The position numbers and the translations under genes are program-made. A DNA stretch of 64,000 nt, from assembly GCA_049517415.1 (NCBI GenBank), contig JBEKSC010000004.1, forward strand, positions 32,001 to 96,000. Direction: 5' to 3'. This stretch comes from Candidatus Bathyarchaeia archaeon (lineage in GTDB: Archaea > Thermoproteota > Bathyarchaeia > 40CM-2-53-6). The notes below the pieces were generated by a model, which did not search any database, had not been told where the DNA came from, and saw only the letters and a program-made list of their open reading frames with translations. Shown piece after piece: positions 44,067 to 64,000 of the stretch (positions within the stretch are counted from its first letter, which is position 1; each line of letters begins with the position of its first letter).

Positions 44067-44128
44067 ACCGCGGTCTCTCCGTTTTGGGAGGGCCTGATAG
44101 ATTTCAGGCGCAAGTTGTGCATTTCACA

Positions 44129-45136: not shown

Positions 45137-45286
45137 ATGACCAACACCGCCTACGCCTAAGGTGTGTTCCGTGATATAACATGATGAGTCTACGCAATGC
45201 GGCTAACCTGCGATATTTCTTGTTTCCCTGGCAACCTTACACAGTCCCGTCTGTTAGGCCTCTAGATATCCAACAGGGTAGCTTAC

Positions 45287-46624: not shown

Positions 46625-46628
46625 GTCC

Positions 46629-46679
46629 CTCACAAATCCAACTTCCAATGAAACCAGCGCCACCTGTAACCAATATAGT
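46629..46679 (-). pseudogene. N-terminal remnant of an NAD-dependent epimerase/decarboxylase
   Basis: TILVTGGAGFIGSWICE ends abruptly at the ugd start region. Confidence 0.65.
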
Positions 46680-46759
46680 TGGCCCTCTGAACGATTAAAC
46701 CCCACTAAGGCTTTCTTGGAATGCTTCGATGCTACCCTTAACGGACGGATCCGAAATGC

Positions 46760-47830: not shown

Positions 47831-48220
47831 CTAGTACGCTGATTCCCACAGGTCTACGGAATATTCGATGAAGTACCAGCCTGGGTACCAGTTTCCGGCT
47901 AGGATCGTGCTGTGTATGTCCCCCATTTTAGCGTTGAACGTCGTTACGCCATCTTGCATGTCGAATAGTCTCGTTACGCCGTCGCGCAAGCGTCGCAGCT
48001 TCGCCAGCTCATTGGCTGCCCAGGCGATCGTTGTTGCTCTGATTTCTCCTGAAACGGTGGCAGTACGGCCTTTATTCCATGCCGTTGAAGGCGTCCAATG
48101 GTCTACGTTTCGCGCAGGCACCACAGTGTCAAGTAATACCTGGTTGGCAGCGAAGTCAACTTCCAGAACGTGTTGAAAGACGACCGGGCCGAATTGAACT
48201 TTCGTTTCGTCGTCAGCCAT
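47831..48220 (-). CDS. Putative Dit/gpU-like tail-tip protein
   Basis: GRTATVSGEI...IEYSVDLWE pattern; resembles the C-terminal domain of the upstream ORF. Confidence 0.45.
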   Translation of the reverse strand: MADDETKVQFGPVVFQHVLEVDFAANQVLLDTVVPARNVDHWTPSTAWNKGRTATVSGEIRATTIAWAANELAKLRRLRDGVTRLFDMQDGVTTFNAKMGDIHSTILAGNWYPGWYFIEYSVDLWESAY

Positions 48221-50139
48221 CAGTCTATCGCCTCTTGAGCCACGAAGGAGTAATTGTAGATCGCGCCATCTTCCGCCTTCTTAGGTTTAGGCACGGACGA
48301 TACGTAGGCGTAGAAACTCTCGCCTGTTGGTAGCATGAAGAAATGCTTCGTGTTGTTTGCTAAGCCAAGAATCATTGCAAGCTCGCCGGCCAAGTCCGTC
48401 GTCCAACCGGTGATCGTTAATTTTCGTCCCTTACCACCCTGGTAGACCTCATTAGGCAACCCGTCGCTCGCCGGCAGGTTCGTCATATTCACGAGCTCAT
48501 CTAACTGAACGGTGAGAACGTGGGAGAACGACGTTCCGTCCACGCTAAGTTGTCCCTGCATCGTGTAGGCGAGTTCAACCGCTAAACCGATCTCGGGAAC
48601 GATTGGCACTGGCCACGGTACAAGGATATATTCTGTGAACGTTCCACTATCCGTAGACTTCAATGAGGCAAGGACGGATTGAGTTATTTCCGTACCTTGA
48701 GTTGATTCTCCAGTCGTTATCAGAGGGCCAGGTGTAAGCTTCTCCGTACCTGTGCCTGTTTCATTGATTCCGGGGCCTCCAGAAACGCTGGATCCGTGCG
48801 CTCCAGAACCTGTTTCAGTGATGGTAAATGATGCTGTTAGGCCCCAGCCTTCAACACCTAACCCGGAGTCGGCAACGGTGAAGGTTACGCTGAGAGCTGG
48901 CAGGTCGGTGCCGGAGCCTGTTTCATTAATCGCTGGGCCTCCAACGGTGCTAAGTAATTCAGTCCCAGCTACAGACTCGAACACGTCAACCTCCGTGTAG
49001 ACGGCGACCGTGAACACTTCACTAAAGACGCCTTCCTCTAACACAACTGGCGAGTAGTAGGGTAGAACGCCGGTGGTCCTGATGTCCGTTTCCGTGTAAG
49101 TGCCAACCTCAGTCACAGTCAAAATGTAGGTGGGGAAATCGTTTTCCGATCCGATGCCGCTTTCAGCCGCAATCGGCGTGTTGACGGGAGTAAGCGCTTC
49201 GGTACCGGTTCCACTCTCAGCAGGCGCTAGAACCGGTTGCAGAGACACCGTCAAATCAGTGCCTGTACCAGCCTCAGATGTGGAGATGAAATTTATCGCT
49301 TTGAATGTGGCGATGACCGCCACTCGATTGGCTTGGGCTCCTGAGTCGGTGTATGTGGTACTTTGTGTTCCGGTTGAAGTCACAATCTTATACATGTAAG
49401 CGCTGGTGGCAACATTAGACCCACCTGTACCGTCAAGCAACGTGTAACCGTTGCTTGGGCTTGATATTGAGGTCGCTCCTCCGTTCCAAGTTCCGGCGCT
49501 GACTACCACTAATTCATTGGCGAACGTTGTTGCGCCACTTGTTGAAATCGTTACGGGCGACGTGACATTCGCTACGGTCCCGTTTTGGTCTACTGGACTT
49601 ACTGTCGTTATGCCTGACCATTCGCAAACGTTGACTACTGCCAAACTGGCTGGATTGCCGCTTAGAGTCACGGTTATTGACTTAGAGGTCCCGCTACCAA
49701 TTAGCCCCCACCACAGTTCGCATTGTTCCCCAAAATTGGAGATCGAATTAACGTAAGTCCAAGTTACACCGGTTTGAGTTATGCCGGTGACAGCGAGATT
49801 CGTGCCACTGTTACCGCTGTTATTCGCGATAGCCAATATGAGTAAGTTACCGTTCGTAGGTGTACTGCCAAGTAAATTGGTGAATACAAGCGGGCTACTG
49901 GTCCCTGTGCCTCGATATGGACCTTGAACGAGAACGATGTTTGCTGCTGCGCCTCGAAGAAAAATTAGTCCCAGAATAGCGTCGCGCAGAAATTTCTCGT
50001 ATGCTTTCTCGTTCCAAGATGTAACGGGGTAGAGGATGGTTTGCTCGTACCCGACAGCGAGGGCTAGAATAGCGAGAGTTTGGACGAGATGCCTACGGCT
50101 AGTACCTCCATAGCATCTACTCTCCGACAAGGTTACCAC
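48220..50139 (-). CDS. Tail fibre/adhesin-like protein with E.G.G.E repeats and a C-terminal Dit-like domain
   Basis: Beta-sandwich N-domain (PTNGNLLI, EWSGI), repeated ExGxGxE/D units. Confidence 0.6.
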   Translation of the reverse strand: MVTLSESRCYGGTSRRHLVQTLAILALAVGYEQTILYPVTSWNEKAYEKFLRDAILGLIFLRGAAANIVLVQGPYRGTGTSSPLVFTNLLGSTPTNGNLLILAIANNSGNSGTNLAVTGITQTGVTWTYVNSISNFGEQCELWWGLIGSGTSKSITVTLSGNPASLAVVNVCEWSGITTVSPVDQNGTVANVTSPVTISTSGATTFANELVVVSAGTWNGGATSISSPSNGYTLLDGTGGSNVATSAYMYKIVTSTGTQSTTYTDSGAQANRVAVIATFKAINFISTSEAGTGTDLTVSLQPVLAPAESGTGTEALTPVNTPIAAESGIGSENDFPTYILTVTEVGTYTETDIRTTGVLPYYSPVVLEEGVFSEVFTVAVYTEVDVFESVAGTELLSTVGGPAINETGSGTDLPALSVTFTVADSGLGVEGWGLTASFTITETGSGAHGSSVSGGPGINETGTGTEKLTPGPLITTGESTQGTEITQSVLASLKSTDSGTFTEYILVPWPVPIVPEIGLAVELAYTMQGQLSVDGTSFSHVLTVQLDELVNMTNLPASDGLPNEVYQGGKGRKLTITGWTTDLAGELAMILGLANNTKHFFMLPTGESFYAYVSSVPKPKKAEDGAIYNYSFVAQEAID

Positions 50140-50194: not shown

Positions 50195-50826
50195 TTAGGC
50201 TAACGTGATCTGCACAGTAGCGATCCAGGAAGCTGCGGCCTTCAACTTATGTATTGAAGGTTTCCGCTAACCTTAGTGCCCATCGCTTGCTGCGCACGGT
50301 CCAGCATCGTTCCGCCACCGGCAGCCGCGTTGAAGATACCGATTTCATTCCACGCATAGTCGGCGACGGCGCTGGCAAAGGTTGCCTGCCAAGTCGCCAG
50401 CTGCGAAGATCCGAAAGTCGGGTATCCTCCATTCATGGCTGCGTATGCTTTGTTCGTGCTGGCTTGAAGTGCGACCTGTGTTGCTACTGCCGCGCTTGTG
50501 CTATCACCCACACCGATGTACGCGTTGACATTGTTGAATAGAGTTGCACCCGTCCCGGCTACTAGAGTCCAAAGTATGTTGATTCCAGCGTTCAGAAGGC
50601 AGTTGCCGCGGAATCGTTTGATGGCCAGTAATGTGTCGAACTGTCGCATGATCTCGTCTAGCCCTACGCCGTCTATGGCTGCGCGAGCCACACGGTCCTT
50701 GGGGTCCCTGAATTTGTGGATCGTGAACTGCGAATAGTGCTGGGCGTAGTCGTGTGCGCCGTATCGTTGGGCGACGCGGATGGCGGCTCTTGCAATAGCC
50801 CGATCTACTAGGTTCTGGCCTGTCAA
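50195..50826 (-). CDS. Tail fibre/baseplate-associated protein; 200 aa if the 29-nt intron 50233..50261 is spliced
   Basis: NCLLNAGI, YIGVGD, ATF..A.YAWNEIGIFN, MLDR..GTK; spliced end GTKVSGTSWIATVQITLA*. Confidence 0.7.
50233..50261 (-). other. Candidate 29-nt BHB-type archaeal intron
   Basis: GCGG/CCGC 4-bp helix, bulges AAA and AGC, stem CCUUCAA/UUGAAGG; canonical cuts restore the frame. Confidence 0.75.
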
Positions 50827-51008
50827 GTTCCCCCACCCTCCACATAGCGAGCGAGTTCTGCGATCACTGCGTTAGCGCTCATCATTAGGGCAGCAGAAAC
50901 AGGGCCCAGTTTCAGTGTGCCGTCTTGACTTGTCAGTATCAAGTTGCCGTTGACGTCCGACTGGAGAGTCCAATCGGCGTTCTGGACTGCGAAATTAAAA
51001 TAGCTCAT
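50823..51008 (-). CDS. Small hypothetical virion-associated protein
   Basis: 61 aa, GGAGG upstream, overlaps the next start. Confidence 0.6.
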   Translation of the reverse strand: MSYFNFAVQNADWTLQSDVNGNLILTSQDGTLKLGPVSAALMMSANAVIAELARYVEGGGT

Positions 51009-51084
51009 AGAAATTTTTCCTCCACTTCCCTATCTACTTGTAAGGCGCTGCTGTTAGGAGGCGCCATCATTCAGTAACGAATGA

Positions 51085-53172
51085 TTATGCTGCCAGGGTG
51101 ATTCCGGCGCTGAGGTCGCTTAGCATTCGGCTTGAGGTTTCGTCAAGCTCCCACAGTTGAGGCATACGCCGGTTCAGGTCGATTGTGGCAATCGTCGGGT
51201 CACTTAGATCCCGCTGAATGCGAACCACGGTGTATAGGCCAGCTAACCCGAGGTCGGGAATGTTGACGGTAATCGAATCCTCAGGCCCGAAAGTGTCTGG
51301 AGGATTCGTGTCTCTCACAGTTATTTGGGCGATGAGTTCGGTGTTTTCGGAATCCGCGAGCATAGCCTGACAGGCTATGGCTAGGGTGGTTGCGTCGGTG
51401 ACGGTTTTCTGGAATGCCACCTGTTCAATTAAGCCGTATTTGTTGATGCTATCGCTGTCACTTTGAATGCTGACTATACCGTTTCCAACCAGGTACATTC
51501 GGTTGCCCATCGTGGAGAAATCTAGTTCACTCGTTGAGTCACCCACCGTATCGCCTTCATTGAAGGCAACGTTCGATGTGCCGCCTCCGAACTGCGAGGC
51601 GAAGTCAAGGGTCAAGTTCGGGTTGACTCGGTACGTCCAACCAATGAGGCCGCAAACCTGCTGGATCGCAGCGCGAAGCGTAACATCAGTGAAAAGTACG
51701 CTTGGTAACGTGATGCCCGTAGTGCCTAGCTGTCCCACCATTATGCCGCATTGGTAATTGGTTAGTAGGCTGTTGATGATGAACTCTGGGCTTGCCGCAA
51801 GAAACTCCGCTTCCTGAATTATTCGGGTGTCTAAGAGTTTGGAGGCGTCAGAACCTGAAAGAGTAATCTTGTACGAGCTGCCTATAGTTCGCTTAATATC
51901 CTCTAGGAGTCCAGCGTACTCTAAGACACCGTACCGATAGACCCGAACGATTCCCCGCGGCGTAAGCGTTGGATAATAACGCGGCAGGTCGAACGTGAAG
52001 GTTTCGATCTTCTGCTGATAGTTCTGCCCGTAATGACTTGTGCCACCGGTTCCACCCACATAGGAATACGGGCAGCCCTCAACGTATAGTTGGAAAGGCT
52101 GCGTTTCATCCGGTCCCTCAGCATCGTAGAATACGTGAACGTTGACGAAGCCGGTTGCAGCGCCCACGGTAGCGTCGCCCGTCCAAGTTGCTTGAACCAC
52201 AGCGAGGCCCGGGGTGGTCGAGGTGAGGGATACGACCGCTAACCCAGCGGCGCTTGTGGTCGCACTTGCCGCGCTGAGTGTTCCGAGGGAGGTTGAGAAG
52301 TTAATTGTTTTACTAGGATACGGTAACTTGGTAGCTAAATTGATCAGCGTAGCCGTGATAACTGCAGTTGTCGGCTGGGCTTTGGATGGGGCGTTCTTCT
52401 GGTAAATCTGAAAATTATCCACGGTGAGACTCAACGTTTGAAGCGGTGTCCAATTCCAAACGTCGCCGCCACACATTGTTTGAGGCTGCGTCTGCTCAAC
52501 TAAAGTTGAACCATCGGCGGCGTAGACCATCGCGTATATTTGCGCGGGCAAAGCAGCCCAAACACTCGCAAGACTGATGACGACTGATGTGGCGTTACCA
52601 GCACAGGTGGCAGACCCGACTAAGCCACCGCCGGGTCCAGCCGTGTAGAGTGAAACTTTCTGACCGCCAGCTAACCCAGTTATAGTTACATTGTTAGACG
52701 AGTAGATCAGTAGGTCCTCGACAGCGATCTCTACGCTTTGGCCAGAAGTATCGGGGCTAAGGGCGAAAGCGTAACCGATCTGAATTTGTTGCGTACCACC
52801 CGGTAGAGTACCCTGTATGCCTGTCCAAGCTGCTTCACCAACGGTACCGAAACTGGTGCTTCCCACTTTAAGTGCGGCAACGTTCGACCTACCTGCAGCT
52901 GGCGGAATTGGCGTCTTGTAATTCAGCCGGAAAACTGCGCCGGTTCCGAGGTTGAAGGACTGATAGAAGTAAGCGTAGGCTTCGAAGCACGCGTAGAAAA
53001 GAGCCCACGCGTTGCCGTTGCTGAACGCCGTAGTCTCAAAGAAACCTGGGACGGTGCATGTTCCCAGACTATAATTATCGTTGGGCGTATCCCAAATGGT
53101 GGTTTTCCAATTACCGAGCGAACTTAAATCGCTACTGTAAATGATGCCCGAGGACCGCTGTGTGAGCGTCAA
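51085..53172 (-). CDS. Tail hub/Tal-like protein with N-terminal beta and Ig-like (Big_1-like) domains
   Basis: Follows the tape measure; FSTSLGTLS..ATT...G.A.V.LTS Ig motif; TLRAAIQQVC, N..YLVG, SINKYG, GPEDSITV hub-like motifs. Confidence 0.7.
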   Translation of the reverse strand: MTLTQRSSGIIYSSDLSSLGNWKTTIWDTPNDNYSLGTCTVPGFFETTAFSNGNAWALFYACFEAYAYFYQSFNLGTGAVFRLNYKTPIPPAAGRSNVAALKVGSTSFGTVGEAAWTGIQGTLPGGTQQIQIGYAFALSPDTSGQSVEIAVEDLLIYSSNNVTITGLAGGQKVSLYTAGPGGGLVGSATCAGNATSVVISLASVWAALPAQIYAMVYAADGSTLVEQTQPQTMCGGDVWNWTPLQTLSLTVDNFQIYQKNAPSKAQPTTAVITATLINLATKLPYPSKTINFSTSLGTLSAASATTSAAGLAVVSLTSTTPGLAVVQATWTGDATVGAATGFVNVHVFYDAEGPDETQPFQLYVEGCPYSYVGGTGGTSHYGQNYQQKIETFTFDLPRYYPTLTPRGIVRVYRYGVLEYAGLLEDIKRTIGSSYKITLSGSDASKLLDTRIIQEAEFLAASPEFIINSLLTNYQCGIMVGQLGTTGITLPSVLFTDVTLRAAIQQVCGLIGWTYRVNPNLTLDFASQFGGGTSNVAFNEGDTVGDSTSELDFSTMGNRMYLVGNGIVSIQSDSDSINKYGLIEQVAFQKTVTDATTLAIACQAMLADSENTELIAQITVRDTNPPDTFGPEDSITVNIPDLGLAGLYTVVRIQRDLSDPTIATIDLNRRMPQLWELDETSSRMLSDLSAGITLAA

Positions 53173-53173
53173 C

Positions 53174-55507
53174 TCATGTTACCGCCGTGTATTTGTAGCC
53201 TGAACCAAATTTTCTTTGCCGAATAATCTTCTGCTCAAGTATGCTTGCGACCGTTTGCCCATCCAACTGAACGACGGTTTGGTTCTGAAGTTGCATCGGG
53301 CCGGATCCTCCTTGGGAAGTTGGCGCTGCGGGTGGCGTTAGACCTGCGCCTATGGCTGCCTGTTGCGCCGGCGTTAGAACCTCCTCGCCGCCGTGAAGCA
53401 TGTAGATCCCCGTTGTGGGAACCATGCCGCCGAGTTGATAGCCTGGGCCTGTAAATTCTCCAAGTCCAGCCCCCGAAAGGCTCACGTTAATGCTGGTCAT
53501 AATCTCGCTGGGGATTTTGTCGAGCCAACTGATGACGTTTTGAATAACGCTGATCGCATCATCCGCAATCGTGGTGACAGTCGTTTCTATCATCGACGGA
53601 ATTGTAGAGATAACTGCGGTGACTTGGTCGAATCCAGTAACCGCATCCGAAACCACAGAACTAACAGTGATGTCCTTTGTGGACGGGATTGCCGCTAAAC
53701 CTGAGGTAACGGCGCCGAACGCTGCCTGCGCCCCACTTTGAATCTGCGACCATGTATTACTGAGAGCCGCAGCCACAGGCTGCACGGCCGTTGTTACTTT
53801 AGACCATAACGTTGAGCCAAGGTTAGTGTTGATTTGGTTTCCAATATTCAAAGTGGTAGTGGCCAGCGGCCCCATCCCGCTCGCTGCTGCGGTGGTCACG
53901 TCGTCCGTTCCAGTAGTCGTATCCTGGGTGGTCTTAGCCCAGAGGCCGTTCCACCAGTCGGTTAGATCTTGCCCCGCTGTCTGCGCGCCCTTCTGGATGC
54001 CCGTCGTGAAATTAGCCCAGTCCTGCTGGTACGTTTGAAGCCACCCGGGGGCGTTTTGTTCTTGGTTCGCGCCAGTGAAAATTTGGTCGGTCGGCGGGTT
54101 TAGGTTCTTTTGACTGAAAGCTTCGGGCGGTGGCGTTACATTCGTAAGTGTGGCCTGGTATGTCGGGGCGTTGGATTGAGGAATGACTTGGGCCGTCTGT
54201 GCAGTCGCGACGCCCATTGGTATGATGCCTACACTTTGAAGCCACTTCACATCGGTCATGATGGCGTTTAAGAAATCCATGCCCGTGATCGCGAGGTCGA
54301 GTGCTACTTCAATTGCGCCTTTAGCAACCTCAGAGACGAACCCCATGAGTTCAGTCAAGTCGCCAGAAGCCACGAACCCCGAGAAGACGCCCATGAATTT
54401 ACTCCACGTTGTCTGGACGCTTGGGTCGAGGGCTAGTGAAGTGATCCAGCTTGTGAATTTGGGCAGGTTGTCGTCAAGCCAACTGGTGAGGGATGTGAGT
54501 GTGGGGAGAAGCATGTCTCCAATTTGTATTTGGAGGTCGGCCCATTCGTTCGTGAGTTGCTGCTGCTTTCCCGCGTACGTGTCCAGCTGGGTTTGAGCTG
54601 CGCTCCCGAACTTATCGTTCAGCTGCGCCATAATGTCGTTGTAGTCTGACGCCTTAGCCGTTGCCCAGTCAAAGTTGATGCCCAGGGCGTGAGTTATGTC
54701 GTTCATCTGGGATGTGGTGATGGTGCCGGCTTTCCATGCGGTAACTAACTCGCCCGTAATCTGTGTCGCAGTCAGCTCTTTCCCGGTAGTAGTTGTGAGG
54801 CTGATTCCTGCCTGTTGAAGTATCTGTGTGAAGGGTTGTAGGGCGTTGACGCCGGCTTTCTGAATCGCAGCCGTTAAGTCGGCGGTTCCTTGTTTAAGAT
54901 CTGCGTTCGCCTTCGTCGTAGTCTGAATAATAATTCCGTACCGGGAGAGGGTGGTTGTGACACCGTCGAATGCTTTCCCGACAAGGTTCACGGCAGTGGT
55001 TAGGTCAAGATTCTTCGCGGCGGACAGGTTAGTTGCGACGGTCAGCGCTTGTTCCGCTTGCGTTGCGTTCATGCCGTAGGTTGCAAGAAGTTGCAGCCCC
55101 TGAACGGCAGCGGTTTGGCTGACGGTTGAAACCTGCTCTAAGCCCTGGACGAAGTTCTGGATCTGTGGTTGCTGCGCAGCCCAGGCGGCGCCGGTTAGGT
55201 GGAGGGATTGTTGAAGCATCGCCCACGCTGACTGTGAAGCTGCCGCAGCGGCTACGGCTTGTTGTATGCCTTGGACGACTTCGCCGATTCCAATAACCGC
55301 CGCGCCTGTCCATCCTGCAACCGCGAAGCCTTGCATCATCTGGCCGACTTGCGCGAAGCCTGGGCCGAGCTGCTGCAACTCCATACCCATTAGGCCCATT
55401 GAAGCGCTAATCTTCCCCATCACACTACTTGCTTCGTGACGGCGCCGTTTTTGTTACGGCTCTACCGCTTGGATGGCGAAGACTATACTTCCGATGTTTG
55501 TACTCAA
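53174..55507 (-). CDS. Tail tape measure protein; 769 aa from TTG 55507 if the 24-nt intron 55438..55461 is spliced
   Basis: Ala/Gln/Thr-rich helical; LSRYGI, KFGSAA..DTYAG, GG.VPTTGIYMLHGGEEVL; spliced start MSTNIGSIVFAIQAVDEASSVMGKI. Confidence 0.85.
55438..55461 (-). other. Candidate 24-nt BHB-type archaeal intron containing an in-frame UAA
   Basis: CGGU/GCCG helix, bulges AGA and UCA, stem GCCGU/ACGGC; splicing gives GCG GUA GAC GAA GCA (AVDEA). Confidence 0.75.
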
Positions 55508-55551
55508 ATCACGTTCACCTTCGTGGATGGTGTTTCTTAAAAATCGGAAGC
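55497..55551. repeat. Direct repeat of 57336..57390 (chaperone end / tape-measure start junction)
   Basis: 55 bp, 6 mismatches by hand alignment. Confidence 0.85.
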
Positions 55552-55849
55552 CAGGTTCGTTGCAGGGATGGTCCCATGTTGGCGCAAGCGCAAGAAGTCG
55601 AAAGGCTCCGCGAAGAAAACAGGGGACATAGAGAAATTTAATCGGCTAGAAAAAGTTGCCAATGAGATAATGATAAAGCAAGAGGAACGAATCAAGAAAC
55701 TAGAGACCGCATCAAGCCTCAAGGTCGAGCACCCAAGCCACGATAAGACGCCCGTATCCAAGGACAAGAAGCCTTAATCAAACTCTAGGGACGATAATTG
55801 GCTTTGTCGTCCTCCAATTCTGAAGACCCTATCCCGTTTTTCGCCATTC

Positions 55850-56364
55850 TCATGTGTTTATGGGAAGCTTGAAGTACATGAATGGCTCGCGCCGACCTTT
55901 CGGTTGATTTTCAGCCAGTTTGAATCCGCAATGTTCGTAGAAAGGAATAGACGCTATCTTTGCATTTAGTATCACAAATTGACATGCAACTTCCTCACGT
56001 ACTTTGGCAGCTGTGGCGATGGCATAGAGGCAGAGTATTCGGCCGACTCCCTTGCCTTGAAATTGCAGTTCAGTAGCAAGTCGTCCAATCATCAATGACG
56101 GATAGTATCGGTACGGCGTGTGCAACGGGCGGTGTTTTTCGTCAATGCTACTGACTTCGATGCTGCTCATACAAGACTCAAGAAGCCTGCAATTTGCGTG
56201 TTGAACAAGGCCAGATAAATGACAGCCGCGTGCTGAAGTTGCTGGTCTTTGGCTTGGTATCTTATGTAGTCATTAAGGTCTGAATTGCCGCAGTCAAAGA
56301 ACCCTGTGTCGTCAGCTATGCTTAGCTTGCGTAGGTTGATTTCTTCGACGGAAAAGATGGACAA
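55850..56364 (-). pseudogene. GNAT acetyltransferase toxin (AtaT/TacT-like), frameshifted near 56168
   Basis: FDCGNSDLNDY..IAGFLSL in one frame, YPSLMIGRLA..QGKGVG..FYEHCGF in the next; one base missing. Confidence 0.8.
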
Positions 56365-56373
56365 GAAAATAAG

Positions 56374-56502
56374 TTACTTCGGGAAGCGTTTCAAAGCCTC
56401 TTCGACTAATCTCTTCTGCGCTTCTGTCGGAGGCTCCGCTGCGTCTTTCAAGAACGCCTCTGCTTCCTTCCCCTTCAAGGTTGGGGGTGGATTTGGTAGC
56501 AT
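56374..56502 (-). CDS. 42-aa putative antitoxin of the GNAT toxin
   Basis: My translation MLPNPPPTLKGKEAEAFLKDAAEPPTEAQKRLVEEALKRFPK; directly upstream of the GNAT. Confidence 0.65.
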   Translation of the reverse strand: MLPNPPPTLKGKEAEAFLKDAAEPPTEAQKRLVEEALKRFPK

Positions 56503-56598
56503 TTTCGTATCCTCCGTTGTCCATTATATCATCATGATGACGATGCCATATAAGTCGTATGCTTGGAAATTAGAACCCTCTCGAACTTCGCTAAGCTG

Positions 56599-56816
56599 TC
56601 AAGTCGTAGTGGCAGCAGTCGTAGTGATAGTTACAGTGACAGACCTCGTCGCAGTGTTAGTAACCGTAGCAGACTGCGTGTAAGTCACACTCCTAGTTGA
56701 AAGGGTCTTAGTGGAGGTAACACTCACAGTGCTCGAGGTAACCGAATTGCTGGTCTGAGTGGCGCTCATGGTCCGAGTGTTAGTTACGGTCGCAGTACTA
56801 GTAACTGTGGCACTCT
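56599..56816 (-). pseudogene. Orphan Thr-rich surface-protein fragment
   Basis: SATVTSTATVTNTRT...TQSATVTNTATRSVTVTITTTAATTT* with no start codon. Confidence 0.65.
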
Positions 56817-56930
56817 TTCCAAAAGTACGTGCACAAGAGGAAGTTGAATGTAACGCTTAGTTCCATCCTTCTGGGTGAAAAGGTAGCTGAGATACTTGCA
56901 GACAATCTTGGTTCCCGCAGCTTGAGACAT
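56817..56930 (-). pseudogene. Truncated N-terminus of a putative retropepsin-like partner of the upstream gene
   Basis: MSQAAGTKIVCKYLSY..YIQLPLVHVLLE broken by the Thr fragment before any DxG motif; position after a DUF5678-like gene. Confidence 0.4.
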
Positions 56931-56952
56931 GGGAAGCCCAAGAAAGCTACCA

Positions 56953-57168
56953 CTACATGACCATTACAGGATCTGACGGAACTTTCATCACGAATGGGAT
57001 CTTGTCTGGGTACTGGTGCTTGGCCTTTATGAAGACCTCTTTCGCGGAATTGCCTTCAGCGATGATCTTGTCGTCCACAACAGCAATCCAGCAATTCACA
57101 TAGTCCCCTAGCTTATCTCCAATTGACATTACGTACTCTAGTTCTCCTTTCATGGGGAATTTCCTCAA
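56953..57168 (-). CDS. DUF5678-like small protein
   Basis: YVNCWIAVVDDKIIAEG.SAKEV..AK..P..KVP. Confidence 0.75.
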   Translation of the reverse strand: MRKFPMKGELEYVMSIGDKLGDYVNCWIAVVDDKIIAEGNSAKEVFIKAKHQYPDKIPFVMKVPSDPVMVM

Positions 57169-57335
57169 GAGAGAGATGACCGGTGGTCATCACTCTATAT
57201 TTATGTGTAGTCACCAAGGCACACTCTCAATGCATCCCACTTCGATCTGAACTCTAGCTTCAGAGCCCTGCACTCCTCAGCGTGCGATTCACTTAATCCA
57301 AAATCAGGGGACTGTACCAACCCCTCGCGGGAATT

Positions 57336-57390
57336 TTTGTACTCAAATCATTTTCACCTTCGTGGATGCTGTTTTTTAAAAATGAGAAGC
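57336..57390. repeat. Direct repeat of 55497..55551
   Basis: Hand alignment. Confidence 0.85.
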
Positions 57391-57889
57391 AGCCACTCTT
57401 GTTGTAAACGAGTGGGTTCCTCCATTCGTTCGGTTAACTTGTAACCGAACTCTGAGACTAGGACTTCGAGAGGGGCCGAGTAGACGGATCCTTCAGCGAA
57501 TGAACTCAGTTTGGCTTTGAGGCTTTTGGGCCCGCGGACAATCCGGATAGCTCAAACGAACGCAGAATAAGTTTCAAGCTTTCCATGGGCATCAAGGCTT
57601 TGGCCACGTCTGGCGCGCCTGTGGCGATGGCTGCGCCTTTCTGTAGAAACGCCAAGTTCGACGCCAACTTATCCTTGTTGCCGATATCCTTCAAGTCCAC
57701 GTTTGTTGACTGTAGGAGCTCTGCCAGGTCCGCGTCGCTCATTGGTGAGACCTCGAACTTGTGCAGTTCATTGTCGACGCCCTTGACCTCGACGGCTTCA
57801 TGGTACTTGGTGCCCTTCGTGATGAGTTCGGCTAGTTTCTGGTTCGCCGCTCTGGCTTCCAAGATTGCCTCTCGTTTTTCTTGACTCAA
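57354..57889 (-). CDS. Tail assembly chaperone (G 57506..57889; GT extension to 57354 via -1 frameshift)
   Basis: Position between tail tube and tape measure; C CCA AAA at 57524..57530; open -1 frame of 59 codons including the stop. Confidence 0.7.
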
Positions 57890-57985
57890 ATCTTTTCACG
57901 CTCCTCGTTTTCTTCCCGTGAGCTTCCGCCTTTGTAGCTTGATCGCGGAAGTGTCACCTTGAGGATTCAATGCACTTGCGTGGCA
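57804..57985. repeat. Direct repeat of 58884..59071 (partial third copy near 59686..59720)
   Basis: tacttggtgcccttcgtgatgagttcg...cacttgcgtggca present twice. Confidence 0.88.
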
Positions 57986-58021
57986 GGCAGGAGGTAGACG
58001 CCAAGGTAGGATGATAAGTAT

Positions 58022-58044
58022 TTATTGATAACAGTTATCAATAA
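58022..58044. promoter_or_regulatory. Perfect palindrome, probable TA autoregulation operator
   Basis: TTATTGATAAC-A-GTTATCAATAA just upstream of the antitoxin start. Confidence 0.7.
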
Positions 58045-58060
58045 TTAATATGGTGGGGGC

Positions 58061-58381
58061 ATGCCTTCAAGTTACAATCTGCCGGAGCTCGTCAAGAAGG
58101 AAATAAGTGCGTTGGTCAAGGCTGGATACTACTCAAGCAAGTCCGATGTCGTAAAGGACGCCCTCAGAACCTTTCTCTCTTCGAAGCGAAGCCTGAGACT
58201 AGCAGCCGCAGCAGAGTTGTATAAGGACGGCGAAGTCACGTTGGGCAAAGCCGCCGAGATTGCGGAGGTTGGGGTAGTTGAGTTCAAGGAAATGTTGGCA
58301 AATCTCGGTCATAAGAGGATGATCTCCGTAAACAGGAGCGATGTCAGAAGGGCTGACGAAATTATGAAAAAGATGAGATAA
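58061..58381 (+). CDS. RHH/CopG + UPF0175-like antitoxin
   Basis: LVKAGYYSSKSDVVKDALR; LYKDGEVTLGKAAEIA. Confidence 0.82.
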   Translation: MPSSYNLPELVKKEISALVKAGYYSSKSDVVKDALRTFLSSKRSLRLAAAAELYKDGEVTLGKAAEIAEVGVVEFKEMLANLGHKRMISVNRSDVRRADEIMKKMR

Positions 58382-58863
58382 TGGACGTTGTCGTCGACAC
58401 AGACATTCTCTCCACATTTGCCAAGGTCAACAAGCTGAAACTGCTCGTCAGACTTTTCCCAAAATCGCGAATCTTGGTCTGCCCAAGTGTTAATCTGGAA
58501 ATTAAGAAAGGAGCAGAATTGGGGCTTCTGAGATACTCGCATCCTCCCGATTTCATTTCAGTCAAGTTGGGCATGCGTGAAAAGGCGGCAGCCGGAGAAG
58601 TCAGAGAAGCTCTGAACTTGGGGTTAGGAGATGCTGAATGTTTGGCAGTCGCTCGAAATAGGAATTGCTTACTTCTCACCAACGACAGGAAAGCGGAGAG
58701 GGCTGCGGGTTCGCTTTCCATCCATTATCTCAATCTCCCGTTGCTGTTGAGAGAACTCTGGAGGAGCCACGTTATGACTAAATCGAGGGTGGCCAAACTT
58801 ATCGACGAAATCGAGAGAAAGGATAACGTCGTGATCAAGAATCGAGAATTTGTTTTCAAATGA
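58381..58863 (+). CDS. PIN-domain protein (DUF3368-like)
   Basis: VVDTDILS, LGLGDAECL, LLTND. Confidence 0.82.
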   Translation: MDVVVDTDILSTFAKVNKLKLLVRLFPKSRILVCPSVNLEIKKGAELGLLRYSHPPDFISVKLGMREKAAAGEVREALNLGLGDAECLAVARNRNCLLLTNDRKAERAAGSLSIHYLNLPLLLRELWRSHVMTKSRVAKLIDEIERKDNVVIKNREFVFK

Positions 58864-58883
58864 ACCCCAAATCACAAGAACGA

Positions 58884-59071
58884 TACTTGGTGCCCTTCGT
58901 GATGAGTTCGCCGAGTTTCTGGTTGGCCGCTCTGGCTTCCAAGATTGCTTCACGCTTTTCTTGACTCAAATCTTTTCACACTCCTTCTGTCTTCTGCCTA
59001 TGAACTTCCGCCATTGTAGTTCAGTGATTGGGCAAGTGTAACCTTGCAGGATCCGGTCCACTTGCGTGGCA
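58884..59071. repeat. Direct repeat of 57804..57985; truncated chaperone 5' copy
   Basis: Encodes MSQEKREAILEARAANQKLGELITKGTKY, then diverges. Confidence 0.85.
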
Positions 59072-59098
59072 ATTGCTACCTAGAAGCAGCCGAACAAA

Positions 59099-59359
59099 TT
59101 ACCTTTCATAAGCATCCTTCCGATGCTCAAATCTCAATAAGATCAGCTTGTCACCCTCGACTTTGTAAATGAGTCTGAAAGGCTTCACGTAAATGCACCA
59201 TTCGCCCTTCAGGCCATAACGCAGGTGCTTTCCGAAGTTTGGATTATCGGCAACTTTGTCTATTTGCTTTTGCAGTTTTTCCTTCAGGCTCTTGTCCCTT
59301 ATCCTTCTTACATCACGCTCGAATTTGTCGGTGGGTACGATGAACTTTATTTCTACCAT
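59099..59359 (-). CDS. relE: RelE/ParE-family toxin
   Basis: KFERD, NPNFGKHL...LKG, FRLIY, HRKDAY. Confidence 0.85.
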   Translation of the reverse strand: MVEIKFIVPTDKFERDVRRIRDKSLKEKLQKQIDKVADNPNFGKHLRYGLKGEWCIYVKPFRLIYKVEGDKLILLRFEHRKDAYER

Positions 59360-59631
59360 TTCTTGAACTCTTTGAAGAAGGCTTTCCTCGAATAGATCTC
59401 ATACCTTCCTTCTTCTATATCCTGCCATGCTTCCTCAATCAGCTTAAGTGTCCTCAAATCTTCGGGCTTCATTCCGGTCTCCAACTTCTTCAACACGATC
59501 ATATCCTTCCTCGCCGTCACGGCGAACACGCTCCCCCTCTTGATCCCAAGCTGTCTCCTAATGATGCTGGGTATCACTATCTGGCCTTTCGAACTTGCTT
59601 TTGTCAACTCAGGGATTCTTGATTCTTTCAT
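59353..59631 (-). CDS. AbrB/MazE-domain antitoxin
   Basis: SSKGQIVIP..IRRQLGIKRG. Confidence 0.85.
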   Translation of the reverse strand: MKESRIPELTKASSKGQIVIPSIIRRQLGIKRGSVFAVTARKDMIVLKKLETGMKPEDLRTLKLIEEAWQDIEEGRYEIYSRKAFFKEFKKW

Positions 59632-59699
59632 ACGAGTAAGATATGCTTACATCTATTTAAAGCGAGGATGAACGAACTGCCTGCGACGCTTTTCTAGAC

Positions 59700-60029
59700 T
59701 CAAGTCTTTTCGCTCCTTCTCGTTTTTCGATTGTGAATCTCAGTGAGTACACTCAGGTCGCCCTGAAGGGCTTTCTCCACCTGCGCCGCACGCAGAAGGA
59801 AGAGTGAATTGTTGCTGACGGTTTGGAACACTATGCGTCCCCCAGCCTCCTGAATCTGACTCCGGATCTTCTGCACGTCGCCAAGTCTGCAGCTCATGAC
59901 GACGCCAAAGGTGATGGGGAATTGTAGGTCGGGGCTATCGCTAGGCTGTGTTGCGTCCGGAAAAAGAGTAGGGGAGTTATGTTCTTGCTTGCTTAATTCT
60001 TTGTAACTGCGGTTCTCCATTTTCTCCAT
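59700..60029 (-). CDS. Hypothetical protein between tail tube and chaperone
   Basis: 109 aa, purine-rich upstream; 3' end overlaps a relic chaperone start. Confidence 0.6.
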   Translation of the reverse strand: MEKMENRSYKELSKQEHNSPTLFPDATQPSDSPDLQFPITFGVVMSCRLGDVQKIRSQIQEAGGRIVFQTVSNNSLFLLRAAQVEKALQGDLSVLTEIHNRKTRRSEKT

Positions 60030-60059
60030 CTCTCCAATCTTAAACGGCCTAAGAAAGGC

Positions 60060-60521
60060 CTACGGACCCGGCGAGCCGGTGGTGTTGGTGATTGAGGCGA
60101 ACATGAAAGTCCATGTTTCCTCAAGGAACCCGTCAGTAGTCTTGAGATCCTCTTGGTAGTCACCTATACAGCCACAAAGCACGATCCCGGTCCCGGTTAG
60201 CTTGTTCTTGACCGCCAAGAAGAGCGGTGTCAAAGCACCGATTGTGAAGGCGCCCACATTTGTTGCGAAAGATCCTGTGGCACCGGATACTTCGGCGAGT
60301 TCATCAACCCAGCGTACTATCGTGCCAGTGTACTTGACGAGTGTTCCGTAGACTTCGGTCCCTCGAGAGCCGATTCCCACGGCCACCTGTGTGGTGTTCT
60401 GATTGACTTTGTAGGTGAGACTCTCAAGGTTGGTTAGTGGAGGCGCAGTTAGGCAGTTCGTTGCTGAGGTCCCTATTCTTATGACCACCTCATCGCCAGT
60501 GTATTTCAAAGCTTGTTTCAC
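60060..60521 (-). CDS. Probable tail tube (major tail) protein
   Basis: Beta-rich 153 aa, YTG.EV, YTGTI.R, ETWTF; position after the gp10-like gene. Confidence 0.6.
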   Translation of the reverse strand: MKQALKYTGDEVVIRIGTSATNCLTAPPLTNLESLTYKVNQNTTQVAVGIGSRGTEVYGTLVKYTGTIVRWVDELAEVSGATGSFATNVGAFTIGALTPLFLAVKNKLTGTGIVLCGCIGDYQEDLKTTDGFLEETWTFMFASITNTTGSPGP

Positions 60522-60556
60522 GCTCCGTCAGGTCTCAATGAGACTGTGACCAGAAA

Positions 60557-60908
60557 CTACTGGAACGCCCAGAGAATCCCGTCCCGAACAAGGGACAATA
60601 ACTTCGCCTGCCCCTCTTCTGCCGAAGGGCGAATGAACGGCTCCGCGGCCATTTTCCGCGTGCCACATTCCACGAAAAAAGGTGTAGTCGGCATCCGCTC
60701 CTAATTCCAGCTGCATCCCGTCCACCGTGTGGTAGATGCTGCTTTGCAGATGGCCCGTTCTTACCGGGACCAGCTGCCTCGAGTGAGCTTCCATATCGGT
60801 GCCGGCCTCCTCAAGGGCGGTAGCGATCGCTTTCTGAATCTCGGCTTTCGCGGCGAGAAGCTTAGCCGTAACCGTATCCGACACAATCTGGATGCTGAAG
60901 CCTGGCAA
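60557..60908 (-). pseudogene. HK97 gp10-like tail-completion protein with a +1 frameshift in a T6 run
   Basis: VPVRTGHLQSSI..DYTFF; +1 frame continues VECGTRKMAAEPFIRPS..AFQ*. Confidence 0.8.
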
Positions 60909-61130
60909 CTATTTTCCCCAACCGATGAGTTTGACGTCGTCGTGAAATCCGCAGAGCGTGCAGAGAACGCTTGGCCGTACGGTCCCATCTACTTCAATCG
61001 TATGCCTGGCCAAGGAGAGCAGGTCGGTTCCGTCGTTGATGTACACAATTCGCCTGCCGTCCTGGGCTTGATAGTAGTGCCAGGTGCGCGGTTGCCAGTC
61101 TGCGTTCAGCGCTTTCGGAAGTTCCAACAT
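60909..61130 (-). CDS. Small Cys/His protein
   Basis: HTI..DGTV.PSVLC..CGFH. Confidence 0.65.
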   Translation of the reverse strand: MLELPKALNADWQPRTWHYYQAQDGRRIVYINDGTDLLSLARHTIEVDGTVRPSVLCTLCGFHDDVKLIGWGK

Positions 61131-61136
61131 TCCTGA

Positions 61137-61583
61137 TCAGCTTGAGTAGAGTACAATGTTCGCGTGGAAATCGTCAGGCAACGGCAGCATGTTATGCGCC
61201 CACACTTCAACGGTGAACGAGCTCAGCGGTTCCGGGAAGGGCGTGTAGAAGTTCGCGTTCCCACTATCGCCAGTGTTGACCTGGGCGATCTCGGTCCCGT
61301 TGACGAAGATGTGAATCGAAACATGGAGCCAGAACCAAGTCGAAACTGTGACCTGCGCCGCCTTCACTGGCTGCCCAAGATGGACAATGATGAAGCGATA
61401 GTAGACGGTCTTGGCGGAAATCATCTCGTACACGTAGATCGGACTCTGCGTCGCCGTCACCTGTTCAGTGAAGACTGGTTGCGGTAACGCGCCGTAGAAT
61501 GATAGGAACACTAGGCTGATCAGTACCAGGAAACCGAATTGCTTCAGCGCCGATTTCGTGCGCTTGACAATGTCTTCTTTCAT
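61137..61583 (-). CDS. Membrane-anchored or secreted hypothetical protein
   Basis: N-terminal TM helix then beta-rich domain. Confidence 0.6.
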   Translation of the reverse strand: MKEDIVKRTKSALKQFGFLVLISLVFLSFYGALPQPVFTEQVTATQSPIYVYEMISAKTVYYRFIIVHLGQPVKAAQVTVSTWFWLHVSIHIFVNGTEIAQVNTGDSGNANFYTPFPEPLSSFTVEVWAHNMLPLPDDFHANIVLYSS

Positions 61584-61584
61584 G

Positions 61585-62052
61585 CTAAGTGGCCAGCTTA
61601 CGGTGGGTCCAGAAGGTCCAATCTTGAATCACCCTGGCTTCTCGCGTCAATACCGGGACCCGTACTGAGGCGCCGAGGGGTAACGTGTCTATGTCCATGA
61701 CTTTCTGTAGGCTGTGAATATCGTAAGTGTCCCGGAGAGCGTCGTGGGCGTTCCAGATAGCCTGCTCAACCTGGTCGGCCAGTTTGCTGCACCCTGCTTT
61801 GTCGTCGAAGTTCACGTCGACCTGCAGCCGGTAGAGGTTCATGACTGCACGGCCACCCGGGGCGCTTGCCGGTCCGCCGTACATGCTGACGCCAGTGGTT
61901 CTACTTGTGCCGGCAACTATGGTGAGGACGATGCTGCGTATGTCGGCGCCTTCGAATGGCAACTCCTTGTAGATCGTGACTCCCAGGTTCGCGGCTGTGA
62001 GAACCGCGGCGAAGGCTGCGCGGACATCCTGCCGAGGCGTAGGCGTACTCAA
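61585..62052 (-). CDS. Probable tail terminator/completion protein
   Basis: R..FAAVL....VTIY..., RLQVDV..D......LADQVEQAI pattern and position. Confidence 0.6.
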   Translation of the reverse strand: MSTPTPRQDVRAAFAAVLTAANLGVTIYKELPFEGADIRSIVLTIVAGTSRTTGVSMYGGPASAPGGRAVMNLYRLQVDVNFDDKAGCSKLADQVEQAIWNAHDALRDTYDIHSLQKVMDIDTLPLGASVRVPVLTREARVIQDWTFWTHRKLAT

Positions 62053-62058
62053 AGGAGG

Positions 62059-62169
62059 TCATCCGTGAAGCGCTACGGCGATGGCTAGGACGATGAGTAC
62101 GACCGCGGCGCAGATGCCCAGAGCGATGTAGCAACCTGAAAGAAAACCACGTACGGCAGCTCGCAGCAT
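62059..62169 (-). CDS. Small single-TM peptide
   Basis: MLRAAVRGFLSGCYIALGICAAVVLIVLAIAVALHG after an AGAAGAAGUGA RBS-like sequence. Confidence 0.45.
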   Translation of the reverse strand: MLRAAVRGFLSGCYIALGICAAVVLIVLAIAVALHG

Positions 62170-62174
62170 TGAAA

Positions 62175-62378
62175 TCACTTCTTCTTGAGCATGCAGAGGA
62201 CAGCTACGACGGCGAAAGCGAGGCCGCCAAGCGTCAGGCTGCCCGTGAGGTACCATACAACGACGGCCAGCACGATGGCGGGTAGGAAGTAGATTGCCGC
62301 CTTCAGTAGAATGATCAGGATCGTCCCAACCACGAGAAACACGCCTAAGAAGAATATGTCAACCAAGAATGGCATCAT
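62175..62378 (-). CDS. Small multi-TM membrane protein
   Basis: Highly hydrophobic, KKK tail, GAGGUGA RBS. Confidence 0.65.
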   Translation of the reverse strand: MMPFLVDIFFLGVFLVVGTILIILLKAAIYFLPAIVLAVVVWYLTGSLTLGGLAFAVVAVLCMLKKK

Positions 62379-62394
62379 AACATTCTCACCTCTC

Positions 62395-62778
62395 CTAATT
62401 CGCCAAGTACTCGGCGATCGGGAACACGACCTTCCGCAGCACCCAATCCTTTAAGGCCGCATGCGGCCGGTCCAGTTGGATGTACATTCGATATCGGCTA
62501 ACGGGAATGACCGAGGGTAGCTTGCCTTGGGCAACTCTCTTGAGTCGACAGAACATCAGGCACGTGAAGTGCGGGCGCCGATAGTGCAGGCCTGGGTGGC
62601 AGATGCAATTCCAACGCGTAACCACAATGTTCGGCGGCGTCATCTTCATGTACAGTTTGCCGTCGAGAACGTCACGCATGATCATGGCGTTTGGGCCAAA
62701 CGGCTCAAGCGGAACCAGGTTGTCTCCGGATCCCGTGCCACCGGATACGTGCCACTCATTGGTCGGGGGTTGACTCAT
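62395..62778 (-). CDS. Hypothetical protein
   Basis: 127-aa ORF co-oriented within the operon. Confidence 0.55.
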   Translation of the reverse strand: MSQPPTNEWHVSGGTGSGDNLVPLEPFGPNAMIMRDVLDGKLYMKMTPPNIVVTRWNCICHPGLHYRRPHFTCLMFCRLKRVAQGKLPSVIPVSRYRMYIQLDRPHAALKDWVLRKVVFPIAEYLAN

Positions 62779-63016
62779 TAATTTTCACGTTCACGTTCCA
62801 GAACACTTTCCAAGGTCTGCAGCCGTAGACATCACTATGTCGAACCACGGCAGCCACAACGTCGTCAGCTGAAATACGGCAATCTTGTCGGAAGCAGGAG
62901 TAGATAACACGAAGGCAAAGGGGGCAAAGCGCTGAGATTGGCGGAACGATACAACACTCTAGTATCACTGCGACTTTGGGAAAGTCTTCAACTGATGATA
63001 GTTTGCTCAATCCCAT
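62756..63016 (-). CDS. Cys-rich hypothetical protein
   Basis: CPLC; C-terminus NESTPDQ copies that of the upstream gene. Confidence 0.4.
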   Translation of the reverse strand: MGLSKLSSVEDFPKVAVILECCIVPPISALCPLCLRVIYSCFRQDCRISADDVVAAVVRHSDVYGCRPWKVFWNVNVKINESTPDQ

Positions 63017-63028
63017 GTGACTTCCCTC

Positions 63029-63508
63029 TCATTGGTCTGGAGTGGGTTCATTCCAGCCGTCGACTATGTTCGGCGTCTGGTACTTGCTGACAGCGGTGTA
63101 CGGATAGCGCTTGATCCAGGGCGTCAGCAAGTCCTGCAGATCCTTGGGTAGCACGGCCTGGAGGGGGATTGAGATTTGGAACATGGTCTCGTGAACGAGT
63201 GGTCCCATCTTGTTGGTGACCATGTACTGAATCATATTCGACGACGCCCGTGCGGCAATGTCCTGGATGGCAGGCGGGATTGCTCCTGGGAAGTCGACGT
63301 CGAAATCCCGCTTACAGAAACGATTGATGTGACTTTGAGCCCGAGGAATCAGCGTGTTGTCTATGAAAGTGTTGAACGCGGCCTCGTTAGGAAATGGGGC
63401 TTGAACGCCCCCTGCGCCCGTCGTGCCAGACACGTTGAGAGCACTCCACTTCGTAGCCGCGTAAATCTTGACTTCAGCGCTGGTGGTCCATGCTGACATA
63501 CTATGCAC
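63029..63508 (-). CDS. Head-tail adaptor (gp6/gp15-like)
   Basis: WTT.AEVK, AQSHINRFCKRDF, P.AIQDIA, L..W pattern. Confidence 0.7.
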   Translation of the reverse strand: MHSMSAWTTSAEVKIYAATKWSALNVSGTTGAGGVQAPFPNEAAFNTFIDNTLIPRAQSHINRFCKRDFDVDFPGAIPPAIQDIAARASSNMIQYMVTNKMGPLVHETMFQISIPLQAVLPKDLQDLLTPWIKRYPYTAVSKYQTPNIVDGWNEPTPDQ

Positions 63509-63511
63509 CTG

Positions 63512-63808
63512 CTACCTTCCGCTATCGCTAAGGTTCTTCTCGTTGAGTCGCCGCGTAACATCTCGGACGGCGAGCCGGCGCTTGGCTTCTCGGAGGTCTG
63601 CTTTGCCTGCGGAGCCCGCGGTGCGGAGGCGTGATCTAATCGGGGCCTTCTTGGCCACGACGACCAGGGCTTTGGTTACCGCGTGAATGGTCTTGATCAG
63701 TTTCGCTTTCTCGTTCACAGAATGCAGCAAAGTGAAGGTGGTGAGTAAGGTGTTGATGCTCGTGGCTACAAGGGCCACGGAAACGAGGACGGTGTCAGCA
63801 TCTACCAT
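63512..63808 (-). CDS. Hypothetical protein, N-terminal hydrophobic helix and basic C-terminus
   Basis: 98-aa ORF within the operon. Confidence 0.5.
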   Translation of the reverse strand: MVDADTVLVSVALVATSINTLLTTFTLLHSVNEKAKLIKTIHAVTKALVVVAKKAPIRSRLRTAGSAGKADLREAKRRLAVRDVTRRLNEKNLSDSGR

Positions 63809-64000
63809 CTACTATCTACCTTCCACTGATGATTAGTCCCGCTCGAGTGGGACGGCTGGGGACAGCCGAAGTCTCGTTCACTATGCGACCGCTGGCCGCA
63901 TGATTATTGTGACTGCTGATCCTTCAGGTTCCAATGTTCTACGGTCACGCTGAGGGGTACCGTGTCGGCGCTTGCCGCCCACTCGGGTGTCGGGGTATGG

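Follow-up and report, generated by a model that had tools for sequence, protein, structure and literature searches.

Two tail genes in a 64,000-nucleotide stretch of a Candidatus Bathyarchaeia archaeon genome (GenBank assembly GCA_049517415.1, contig JBEKSC010000004.1, positions 32,001 to 96,000; hereafter the window) are each interrupted by a short insert that carries a stop codon, and the question raised by this locus is whether the genes are broken or whether the inserts are removed from their messages. The host is a Bathyarchaeia-type archaeon from peat, and the element to which the genes belong is, judged by its gene content, a head-tail (Caudoviricetes-type) provirus. A sequence-only reading of the window had proposed that both inserts are introns of the bulge-helix-bulge (BHB) type, spliced by the host tRNA splicing endonuclease EndA and by RtcB, and that together they constitute a system gating the tail genes. 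The analysis presented herein separates the two halves of that interpretation. The inserts do behave as BHB-type introns, as shown by intron-less alleles, boundaries that match homology and covariation, and it is very likely that they are really spliced, but a dedicated tail-gene gating system is not supported. We propose, as the reading that is probable on balance, that they are genuine EndA/RtcB-spliced mRNA introns that have spread among structural genes, are tolerated there, and often carry a fail-safe stop.

Both genes are on the minus strand (Table 1), and the two inserts and their junctions are where they had been placed, with a geometry more relaxed than that described. In the tape-measure gene the insert of 24 nt is in frame and carries TAA, so that the unspliced frame runs for 15 codons before entering it and would end as a stub of 18 amino acids, while excision gives a single frame of 769 codons whose TTG start is preceded by a Shine-Dalgarno-like GGTGA (55519-55515). 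The adaptor insert of 29 nt introduces a frameshift and a TGA; its excision gives a protein of 200 amino acids, and the unspliced product would lack the last core strand. The tape-measure motif consists of a helix strand CGGT (55467-55464), a bulge AGA, a 5-bp hairpin, the partner strand GCCG (55443-55440) and a bulge TCA, and the adaptor motif of GCGG (50267-50264), AAA, a 7-8-bp hairpin, CCGC and AGC. At 24 and 29 nt the inserts are too short for the catalytic core of a group I intron, and that identity was rejected.

Shape alone proves little because loose BHB-like motifs are common (49,595 in 2.27 Mb). The 29-kb element holds 193 such motifs no longer than 40 nt, and when these are ordered by ensemble probability the two introns nevertheless come first and second (0.997 and 0.981); the third-ranked motif (window ~53292, 24 nt, in frame) was dropped for want of homology support. 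The inserts are not assembly errors, since contigs from 4/4 DNA runs, any of which may include the source sample, span both without gaps and with identical letters, and the organism's two other assemblies agree at both sites, which speaks against the assembly artefact that had been raised as a concern. The borders were evaluated by a blind deletion test in which all deletions of 6-90 nt near a break (2,200-4,200 deletions) were scored against an intron-less homologue with structure ignored. The BHB cut was best or tied-best in 19/19 such comparisons covering 16 introns, including 4/4 for the two introns of the window, where the best match was each time one single product. Hence cuts after the second nucleotide of each bulge, as had been predicted, restore homologue-like proteins from both genes.

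Intron-less alleles of both genes are found in related genomes, and their borders equal the predicted cuts. The intron-less adaptor homologue P0002, 87% identical to the window's protein, has the same ending as the spliced form, and the strand encoded by exon 2 terminates 115 of the 120 listed adaptor homologues (read by eye). The five exceptions are the protein of the window itself, three homologues that break off where it does and have a similar tail, and one that is cut short by another intron. For the tape measure, 18 of 19 other loci (some of them one contig fetched twice) are uninterrupted and match the spliced form, and in the one remaining locus, L019, a separate BHB insert of 21 nt lies 5 nt further along; the intron-less homologues in L007 and L243 use the same start as the window's gene. 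In an alignment of six related copies of the adaptor intron (site A), 92% of cells are paired, compared with 36-44% in slid controls, and two-sided changes are present in 4 of 11 pairs, the central helix included, with three of them in the intron-side helix h'. None of 500 shuffles reached the paired fraction or the covariation score of site A, a count that is not a probability as the sequences are related.

The host also encodes the proteins that splicing would require, as had been supposed: there are two EndA-family genes, located near 75178 on contig C10 and near 42070 on contig C2 and corresponding to a two-subunit EndA, and RtcB. The catalytic EndA subunit is nearest to the Aeropyrum alpha subunit (E 8e-39) in an end-to-end alignment and keeps the catalytic Tyr, His and Lys residues together with the lysine of the Crenarchaea-specific loop (CSL); the second subunit looks structural. 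The CSL lysine has been linked to broad EndA specificity (PMC3241643), and specificity for relaxed motifs has been ascribed to (alpha-beta)2 enzymes (PMC5829648, PMC3241643). Introns are present in 23 of the 28 tRNA genes called by ARAGORN, two being implausibly long, and the host glyA gene, for serine hydroxymethyltransferase (SHMT), is split by a 32-nt BHB (L280:1292-1323, on G000:C45) exactly between Pfam positions 50 and 51. When the host genome was scanned for mRNA introns without recourse to homology (10,708 motifs, codon model), the output was too noisy for counting, with glyA at rank 24 among many gene-boundary artefacts. Neither window intron has a look-alike elsewhere in the host genome at up to 5 mismatches, which gives no support to recent copying from one of the host's tRNA introns.

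Within related head-tail elements the introns extend well beyond the tail. A BHB-first scan with homology support (291 loci, 3.26 Mb) and a sweep that started from homology, with 14 structural queries of which one was out of frame and gave no information, yielded 14 intron sites: five in the adaptor gene, two in the tape measure, six in the major capsid gene, one of these imperfect, and one in the portal gene. One of the capsid sites has a hairpin mismatch, and one has 3/4 central pairs only. These mini-introns measure 21-70 nt, and every passing intron is on the coding strand of a structural gene, a bias that comes partly from the choice of queries and from homologue coverage. A first loose pass returned 106 rows, mostly noise; a later rule passed 16 of 38 rows. 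Occurrence is patchy, with introns in a minority of other adaptor loci (7/204), in 1/29 loci of a class-wide genome search and in 5/13 full-length capsid loci of the class search; a tape-measure query gave no match on viral contigs. Related loci are present in named Bathyarchaeia records. The sister element (L007/L291, ~78% nucleotide identity) shares the adaptor intron, has no tape-measure intron, and carries in its capsid gene a 39-nt intron missing from the window's element. On a FastTree tree with many weak branches, which does not separate gain from loss, the site A alleles form three subgroups, each beside intron-less alleles. The presence of the same introns in capsid and portal genes of relatives, the different set in the sister and the scattering of alleles on the tree speak against a dedicated tail-gating switch, and nothing was seen that points to regulation or to a host-range lock. 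Intron spread, the third option offered by the sequence-only reading, is the best fit to the patchy sites and scattered alleles.

Individual loci add detail to this distribution. Major-capsid introns were noted at L291:10879-10924 and in L171, L262, L268, L283, L285, L286, L289, L321, L322, L329 and L338, and a portal-gene intron in L212; in L285 a single capsid gene holds two introns, as does a single adaptor gene in L027. Two sequences that match the capsid-site pattern, in L330/L332 and L333/L339, have no hairpin or capsid context and were excluded from the count of 12 given below, and a stop in the L007 fibre gene was rejected as an intron, the motif being weak and the frame not restored. 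Four adaptor sites lie within ~10 codons at the C-terminus of the protein. The sister's adaptor gene also has a 698-nt insert (L007:10404-11101, also in L011) with a LAGLIDADG open reading frame (ORF) fused in frame to it; the exon ends in U and the intron in G, there is a P1-like hairpin, and the core motifs are ones that we take to be those of a group I intron, a label that is provisional. Rfam gave no match in L007 or L004. This insert is 1 nt from BHB site B of L010.

An in-frame stop is present inside the intron at 11 of the 14 sites. At the best-sampled capsid site, 12/12 distinct introns of 26-70 nt contain one, and in 8/12 it occupies a single column as TAA, TAG or TGA while the neighbouring loop bases vary, an interchange that suggests selection for ending the translation of unspliced messages. 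At site A, 5/5 distinct translated introns end the unspliced frame in Y-I-x-stop. The sequence TACAT is kept in the loop of these introns (window, L024, L034, L036 and L037), with the Ile codon varying synonymously, and the L291 capsid intron has the same Y-I-x-stop ending, which could stem from shared descent or mark either an RNA motif or a tag at the C-terminus.

Several observations weigh against the reading that we favor. The window introns are relaxed HBh'/BHL-like motifs rather than textbook hBHBh' ones. In both, folding predicts the central 4-bp helix (probability 0.96-1.0) and an unpaired first bulge, and the intron-side helix h' is present (5 and 8 bp), but most of the second bulge is predicted to be paired (with 30-nt flanks its bases are unpaired at a probability of 0.01-0.4) and the exon-exon helix is weak, with 1 bp contiguous, such that both fail the strict hBHBh' form in which an exon-side helix closes the second bulge. 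The strict form does occur at the capsid site of relatives, where a 4-bp exon helix is 100% paired in 8 sequences, with no two-sided changes. Relaxed motifs can be cut slowly (PMC3241643), and splicing in vivo is a process that we infer from genome comparison. The host's glyA intron does not prove obligatory mRNA splicing because a second SHMT-family gene (on contig C7) is intact. The excess of stops is modest, at 7/10 independent sites of non-3n length compared with per-intron shuffle rates of 0.13-0.82, 3n sites being biased since they are detectable as breaks only if a stop lies inside. Among named genome loci a passing intron was found in 2/13 archaeal versus 0/33 bacterial ones, a contrast that is non-significant (Fisher p 0.075) and for which the rows had been seen before the pass rule was fixed. 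Finally, the element may be defective, and its copies may have escaped selection, because an HK97-gp10-like gene (~60690, minus strand) carries a single surplus T within a T run, unchanged across the other assemblies and attributable to decay or slippage, and because the tyrosine integrase family PF00589 has no match on contig C4; nor was an integrase found among 24 upstream ORFs of four relatives.

The sequence of events that we envision begins with a late provirus transcript, assuming that the late genes are transcribed, which by folding prediction would form locally the 4-bp helix, the 3-nt bulge and the intron hairpin. From the established chemistry of these enzymes, the two-subunit EndA of the host would cut each bulge behind its second base, leaving the exons to be joined by RtcB, which, with borders as given by homology, would restore the tape-measure start and the last beta-strand of the adaptor. 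The introns may have originated through the same kind of gain that loads the tRNA genes of the host, and may since have been spread or lost among related viruses, site by site, persisting since splicing makes them nearly silent. If selection has acted on the in-frame stop, unspliced messages would give short dead products rather than poisoned particle subunits. Particle production would then depend on host splicing, with the intron as a tolerated passenger rather than a designed switch.

A more purposeful role has been considered in two forms. One is that virion assembly of Bathyarchaeia head-tail viruses is placed under host tRNA splicing, with the stop-containing introns as a selected OFF state, the block on capsid, portal, tape-measure and adaptor mRNAs being lifted only when EndA/RtcB outrun the ribosome; the chance of this is small, although not trivial, and if true it would give regulated unconventional mRNA splicing a prokaryotic counterpart, carried by viruses. 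The other, which we regard as unlikely, is a regulatory gate in which spliced introns are kept because the rate of splicing switches the output of particle proteins between lysogeny and induction, the rate being set by the level of EndA/RtcB or by competition with translating ribosomes. Such a gate would account for the stops that make unspliced messages dead ends and that interchange at one column, for the restriction of passing introns to the coding strand of structural genes, were that not due in part to queries and homologue coverage, and for the weak second bulge, which could allow slow, tunable splicing. It sits poorly with the patchy occurrence of the introns, and it is disfavored because the introns are neither tail-specific nor shared by sister elements and because EndA has a housekeeping role, growth being impaired when it is knocked down (PMC7714728).

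The inserts might also have been selected because, once spliced, they alter DNA and not protein, and so break CRISPR protospacers or the targets of homing endonucleases. We consider this improbable. The introns do cluster in the most conserved stretches, such as the C-terminus of the adaptor, and site B adjoins the insertion point of the LAGLIDADG-bearing group I-like intron of the sister, but conserved sites are also where the detection of introns works best. The spliced junctions are unmatched elsewhere in the host genome, in which a crude finder reported one repeat array, its spacers not being separately extracted.

It is likewise doubtful that the inserts are not spliced at all, being instead DNA-level hairpin insertions that inactivate decaying proviruses, or sources of shortened proteins through the internal stop or a downstream start. 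The frameshift in gp10 is real, an integrase is not nearby, downstream tape-measure starts exist (GTG/ATG at 55423/55420), the shared Y-I-x-stop ending of site A could belong to a shortened product, and unspliced 12-bp inserts have been reported in an archaeal virus (PMC2738675). Against this, the borders are in exact bulge register at many independent sites, compensatory changes have occurred at site A, and exon 2 is conserved behind frameshifting inserts, as in the last 45 residues of the capsid protein; in the adaptor it is modeled as a high-confidence core strand. Ribosomal bypass, in which the ribosome hops the hairpin and the RNA stays uncut, as in gene 60 of T4, is highly improbable, for although a hairpin and a stop codon just past the take-off point are common among the inserts, the take-off and landing codons show no apparent match, the junctions fall in all three phases (0, 1 and 2), and the conserved 4-bp/3-nt geometry would serve no role in bypassing.

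The interrupted genes belong to a head-tail morphogenesis module of ~27 kb that extends from window position 47831 to ~106560 on contig C4 of the host genome (G000:C4) and contains terminase, portal, protease, capsid, neck, tape-measure, hub and fibre-like genes, several of them with matches below curated cut-offs; the capsid, protease, portal and split terminase genes are in the part past the window. A model of P0002 (predicted local distance difference test, pLDDT, 91.5) places the equivalent of exon 2 as the last strand, of 11 residues, in the high-confidence core, and resembles in fold a putative tail chain from Haloferax virus HFTV1 (Z 10.4, root-mean-square deviation 4.1, 133 aligned) as well as the GP4 fibre-tail adaptor (Z 7.2). 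The unspliced adaptor gave a pLDDT of 71.7 compared with 91.5, a weak comparison as its alignment was shallower (39 versus 97 rows).

Table 1. Features of the tail region of the putative provirus, in window coordinates.
Feature	Position	Strand	Basis or remark
Upstream morphogenesis genes: chaperone-like, tail tube-like, HK97-gp10, adaptors; toxin-antitoxin pairs inserted	57506..64000	-	
Accessory cassette: DUF5678, frameshifted GNAT, small ORFs	55494..57390		Between 58-bp repeat copies; missing from sister L007
Tape measure exon 1 (TTG, 15 codons + 1 nt)	55462..55507	-	Start as in L007, L243
24-nt BHB-type intron, in-frame TAA	55438..55461	-	Motif rank, blind deletions, DNA runs
Tape measure exon 2	53174..55437	-	PHROG tape-measure families, E 2e-11
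Baseplate hub / distal tail protein (Prophage_tail, Ig-like domain), uninterrupted	51085..53172	-	
61-aa ORF overlapping adaptor start; also in sister L007	50823..51008	-	
Tail/fibre-adaptor-like gene exon 1	50262..50826	-	phrog_23653; fold matches to tail and fibre-adaptor chains
29-nt BHB-type intron (site A), frameshift, TGA	50233..50261	-	Common to L007, L010 (contig ends inside the intron), L024, L034, L036, L037
Adaptor exon 2, C-terminal beta-strand	50195..50232	-	Homologue alignment, structure model
Fibre-like Thr/Gly-rich repeat protein, 3' of adaptor	48220..50139	-	No family match
Last gene of tail module; then host-like sugar-nucleotide genes	47831..48220	-	

The surroundings of these genes show further rearrangement. 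Direct repeats of 58 bp (88%; 55494-55551 and 57333-57390) duplicate the start region of the tape measure, and direct repeats of 188 bp (85%; 57804-57985 and 58884-59071) duplicate that of the chaperone gene; the repeats enclose accessory toxin-antitoxin and GNAT cassettes, which are missing from the sister element. The large terminase is encoded as separate ATPase and nuclease ORFs (L004:10454-11903; also L272, L292, L293, L296, L297, L299 and L300), with a frameshift overlap in some and a small ORF (~100 codons, opposite-role) between the halves in others. The split recurs in related elements of the same type and is thus a family trait, and it was rejected as a third intron since it is common to relatives and has no BHB at the break. 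A GH32-like beta-propeller gene is antisense between the portal region and the protease gene (L004:5476-6525, plus strand), and the tail module is succeeded immediately, without a change of strand, by genes for sugar-nucleotide metabolism and glycosyltransferases (window 42972-47683, minus).

Introns in tailed viruses are not new as such, since group I introns occur in phage genes. The present introns are similar in that they are located in conserved genes of tailed viruses, one group I-like element being found in the same adaptor gene of the sister, but group I introns are self-splicing ribozymes of several hundred nucleotides, whereas the mini-introns have no catalytic core and would need host proteins. 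The nearest cellular precedent is the BHB intron of cbf5 pre-mRNA, reportedly described by Watanabe in 2002. Like it, the introns described here are short, interrupt a coding sequence at a conserved position, have BHB-like borders, are patchy with intron-less relatives and are missed by annotation, and the dependence on EndA shown for cbf5 is predicted here; unlike it, they are spread over 14 sites, in viral structural genes of four kinds, and their splicing is predicted, whereas cbf5 is one cellular gene with one site at which splicing was shown. The cbf5 intron occurs in Desulfurococcales and Sulfolobales (Yokobori, 2009; PMC2738675), and a 2020 study, in the part drawn on here, names cbf5 and the 5' untranslated region of HVO_1309 in Haloferax volcanii as the only mRNA cases for the tRNA splicing endonuclease (PMC7714728). 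The HVO_1309 intron is likewise an mRNA substrate of this enzyme, but it is in the untranslated region of a cellular gene and leaves the reading frame unbroken. The HBh'/BHL and transposed tRNA introns of Thermoproteota (PMC3241643, PMC4090602) are comparable in size, relaxed motif and recurrent gain at new positions, and they share with the window introns a need, predicted in the latter case, for an (alpha-beta)2 EndA with the CSL, the difference being that the target here is the mRNA of a virus. Putative introns of 12 bp in an archaeal virus genome, whose splicing was not shown (Peng et al., as cited in PMC2738675), are also short inserts in viral coding genes, but they keep the frame, whereas the present ones of 21-70 nt break it and have BHB geometry. 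Archaeal group I introns are described as found only in rRNA genes (PMC6125680). A literature search whose coverage ended short of subscription journals and supplements found no BHB intron in a viral coding sequence, in line with the sequence-only reading, which knew of none in viral structural genes. By term searches, introns are unmentioned in the main text of two studies on Bathyarchaeia viruses and Asgard mobile elements (PMC10848311, PMC11529989), and in PMC13465236 the word intron occurs in the references only.

If the inserts are spliced, they would represent viral mRNA introns that rely on the tRNA-splicing proteins of the host, for which we found no example in print, and these elements would provide a fast-evolving system in which to study the gain and loss of BHB introns and their possible descent from group I introns. 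It may also be that archaeal proviruses whose annotation shows them as broken, the capsid or tape-measure gene being truncated, are in fact intact, and the related viruses probably need the tRNA-splicing enzymes of their hosts to make their particle proteins.

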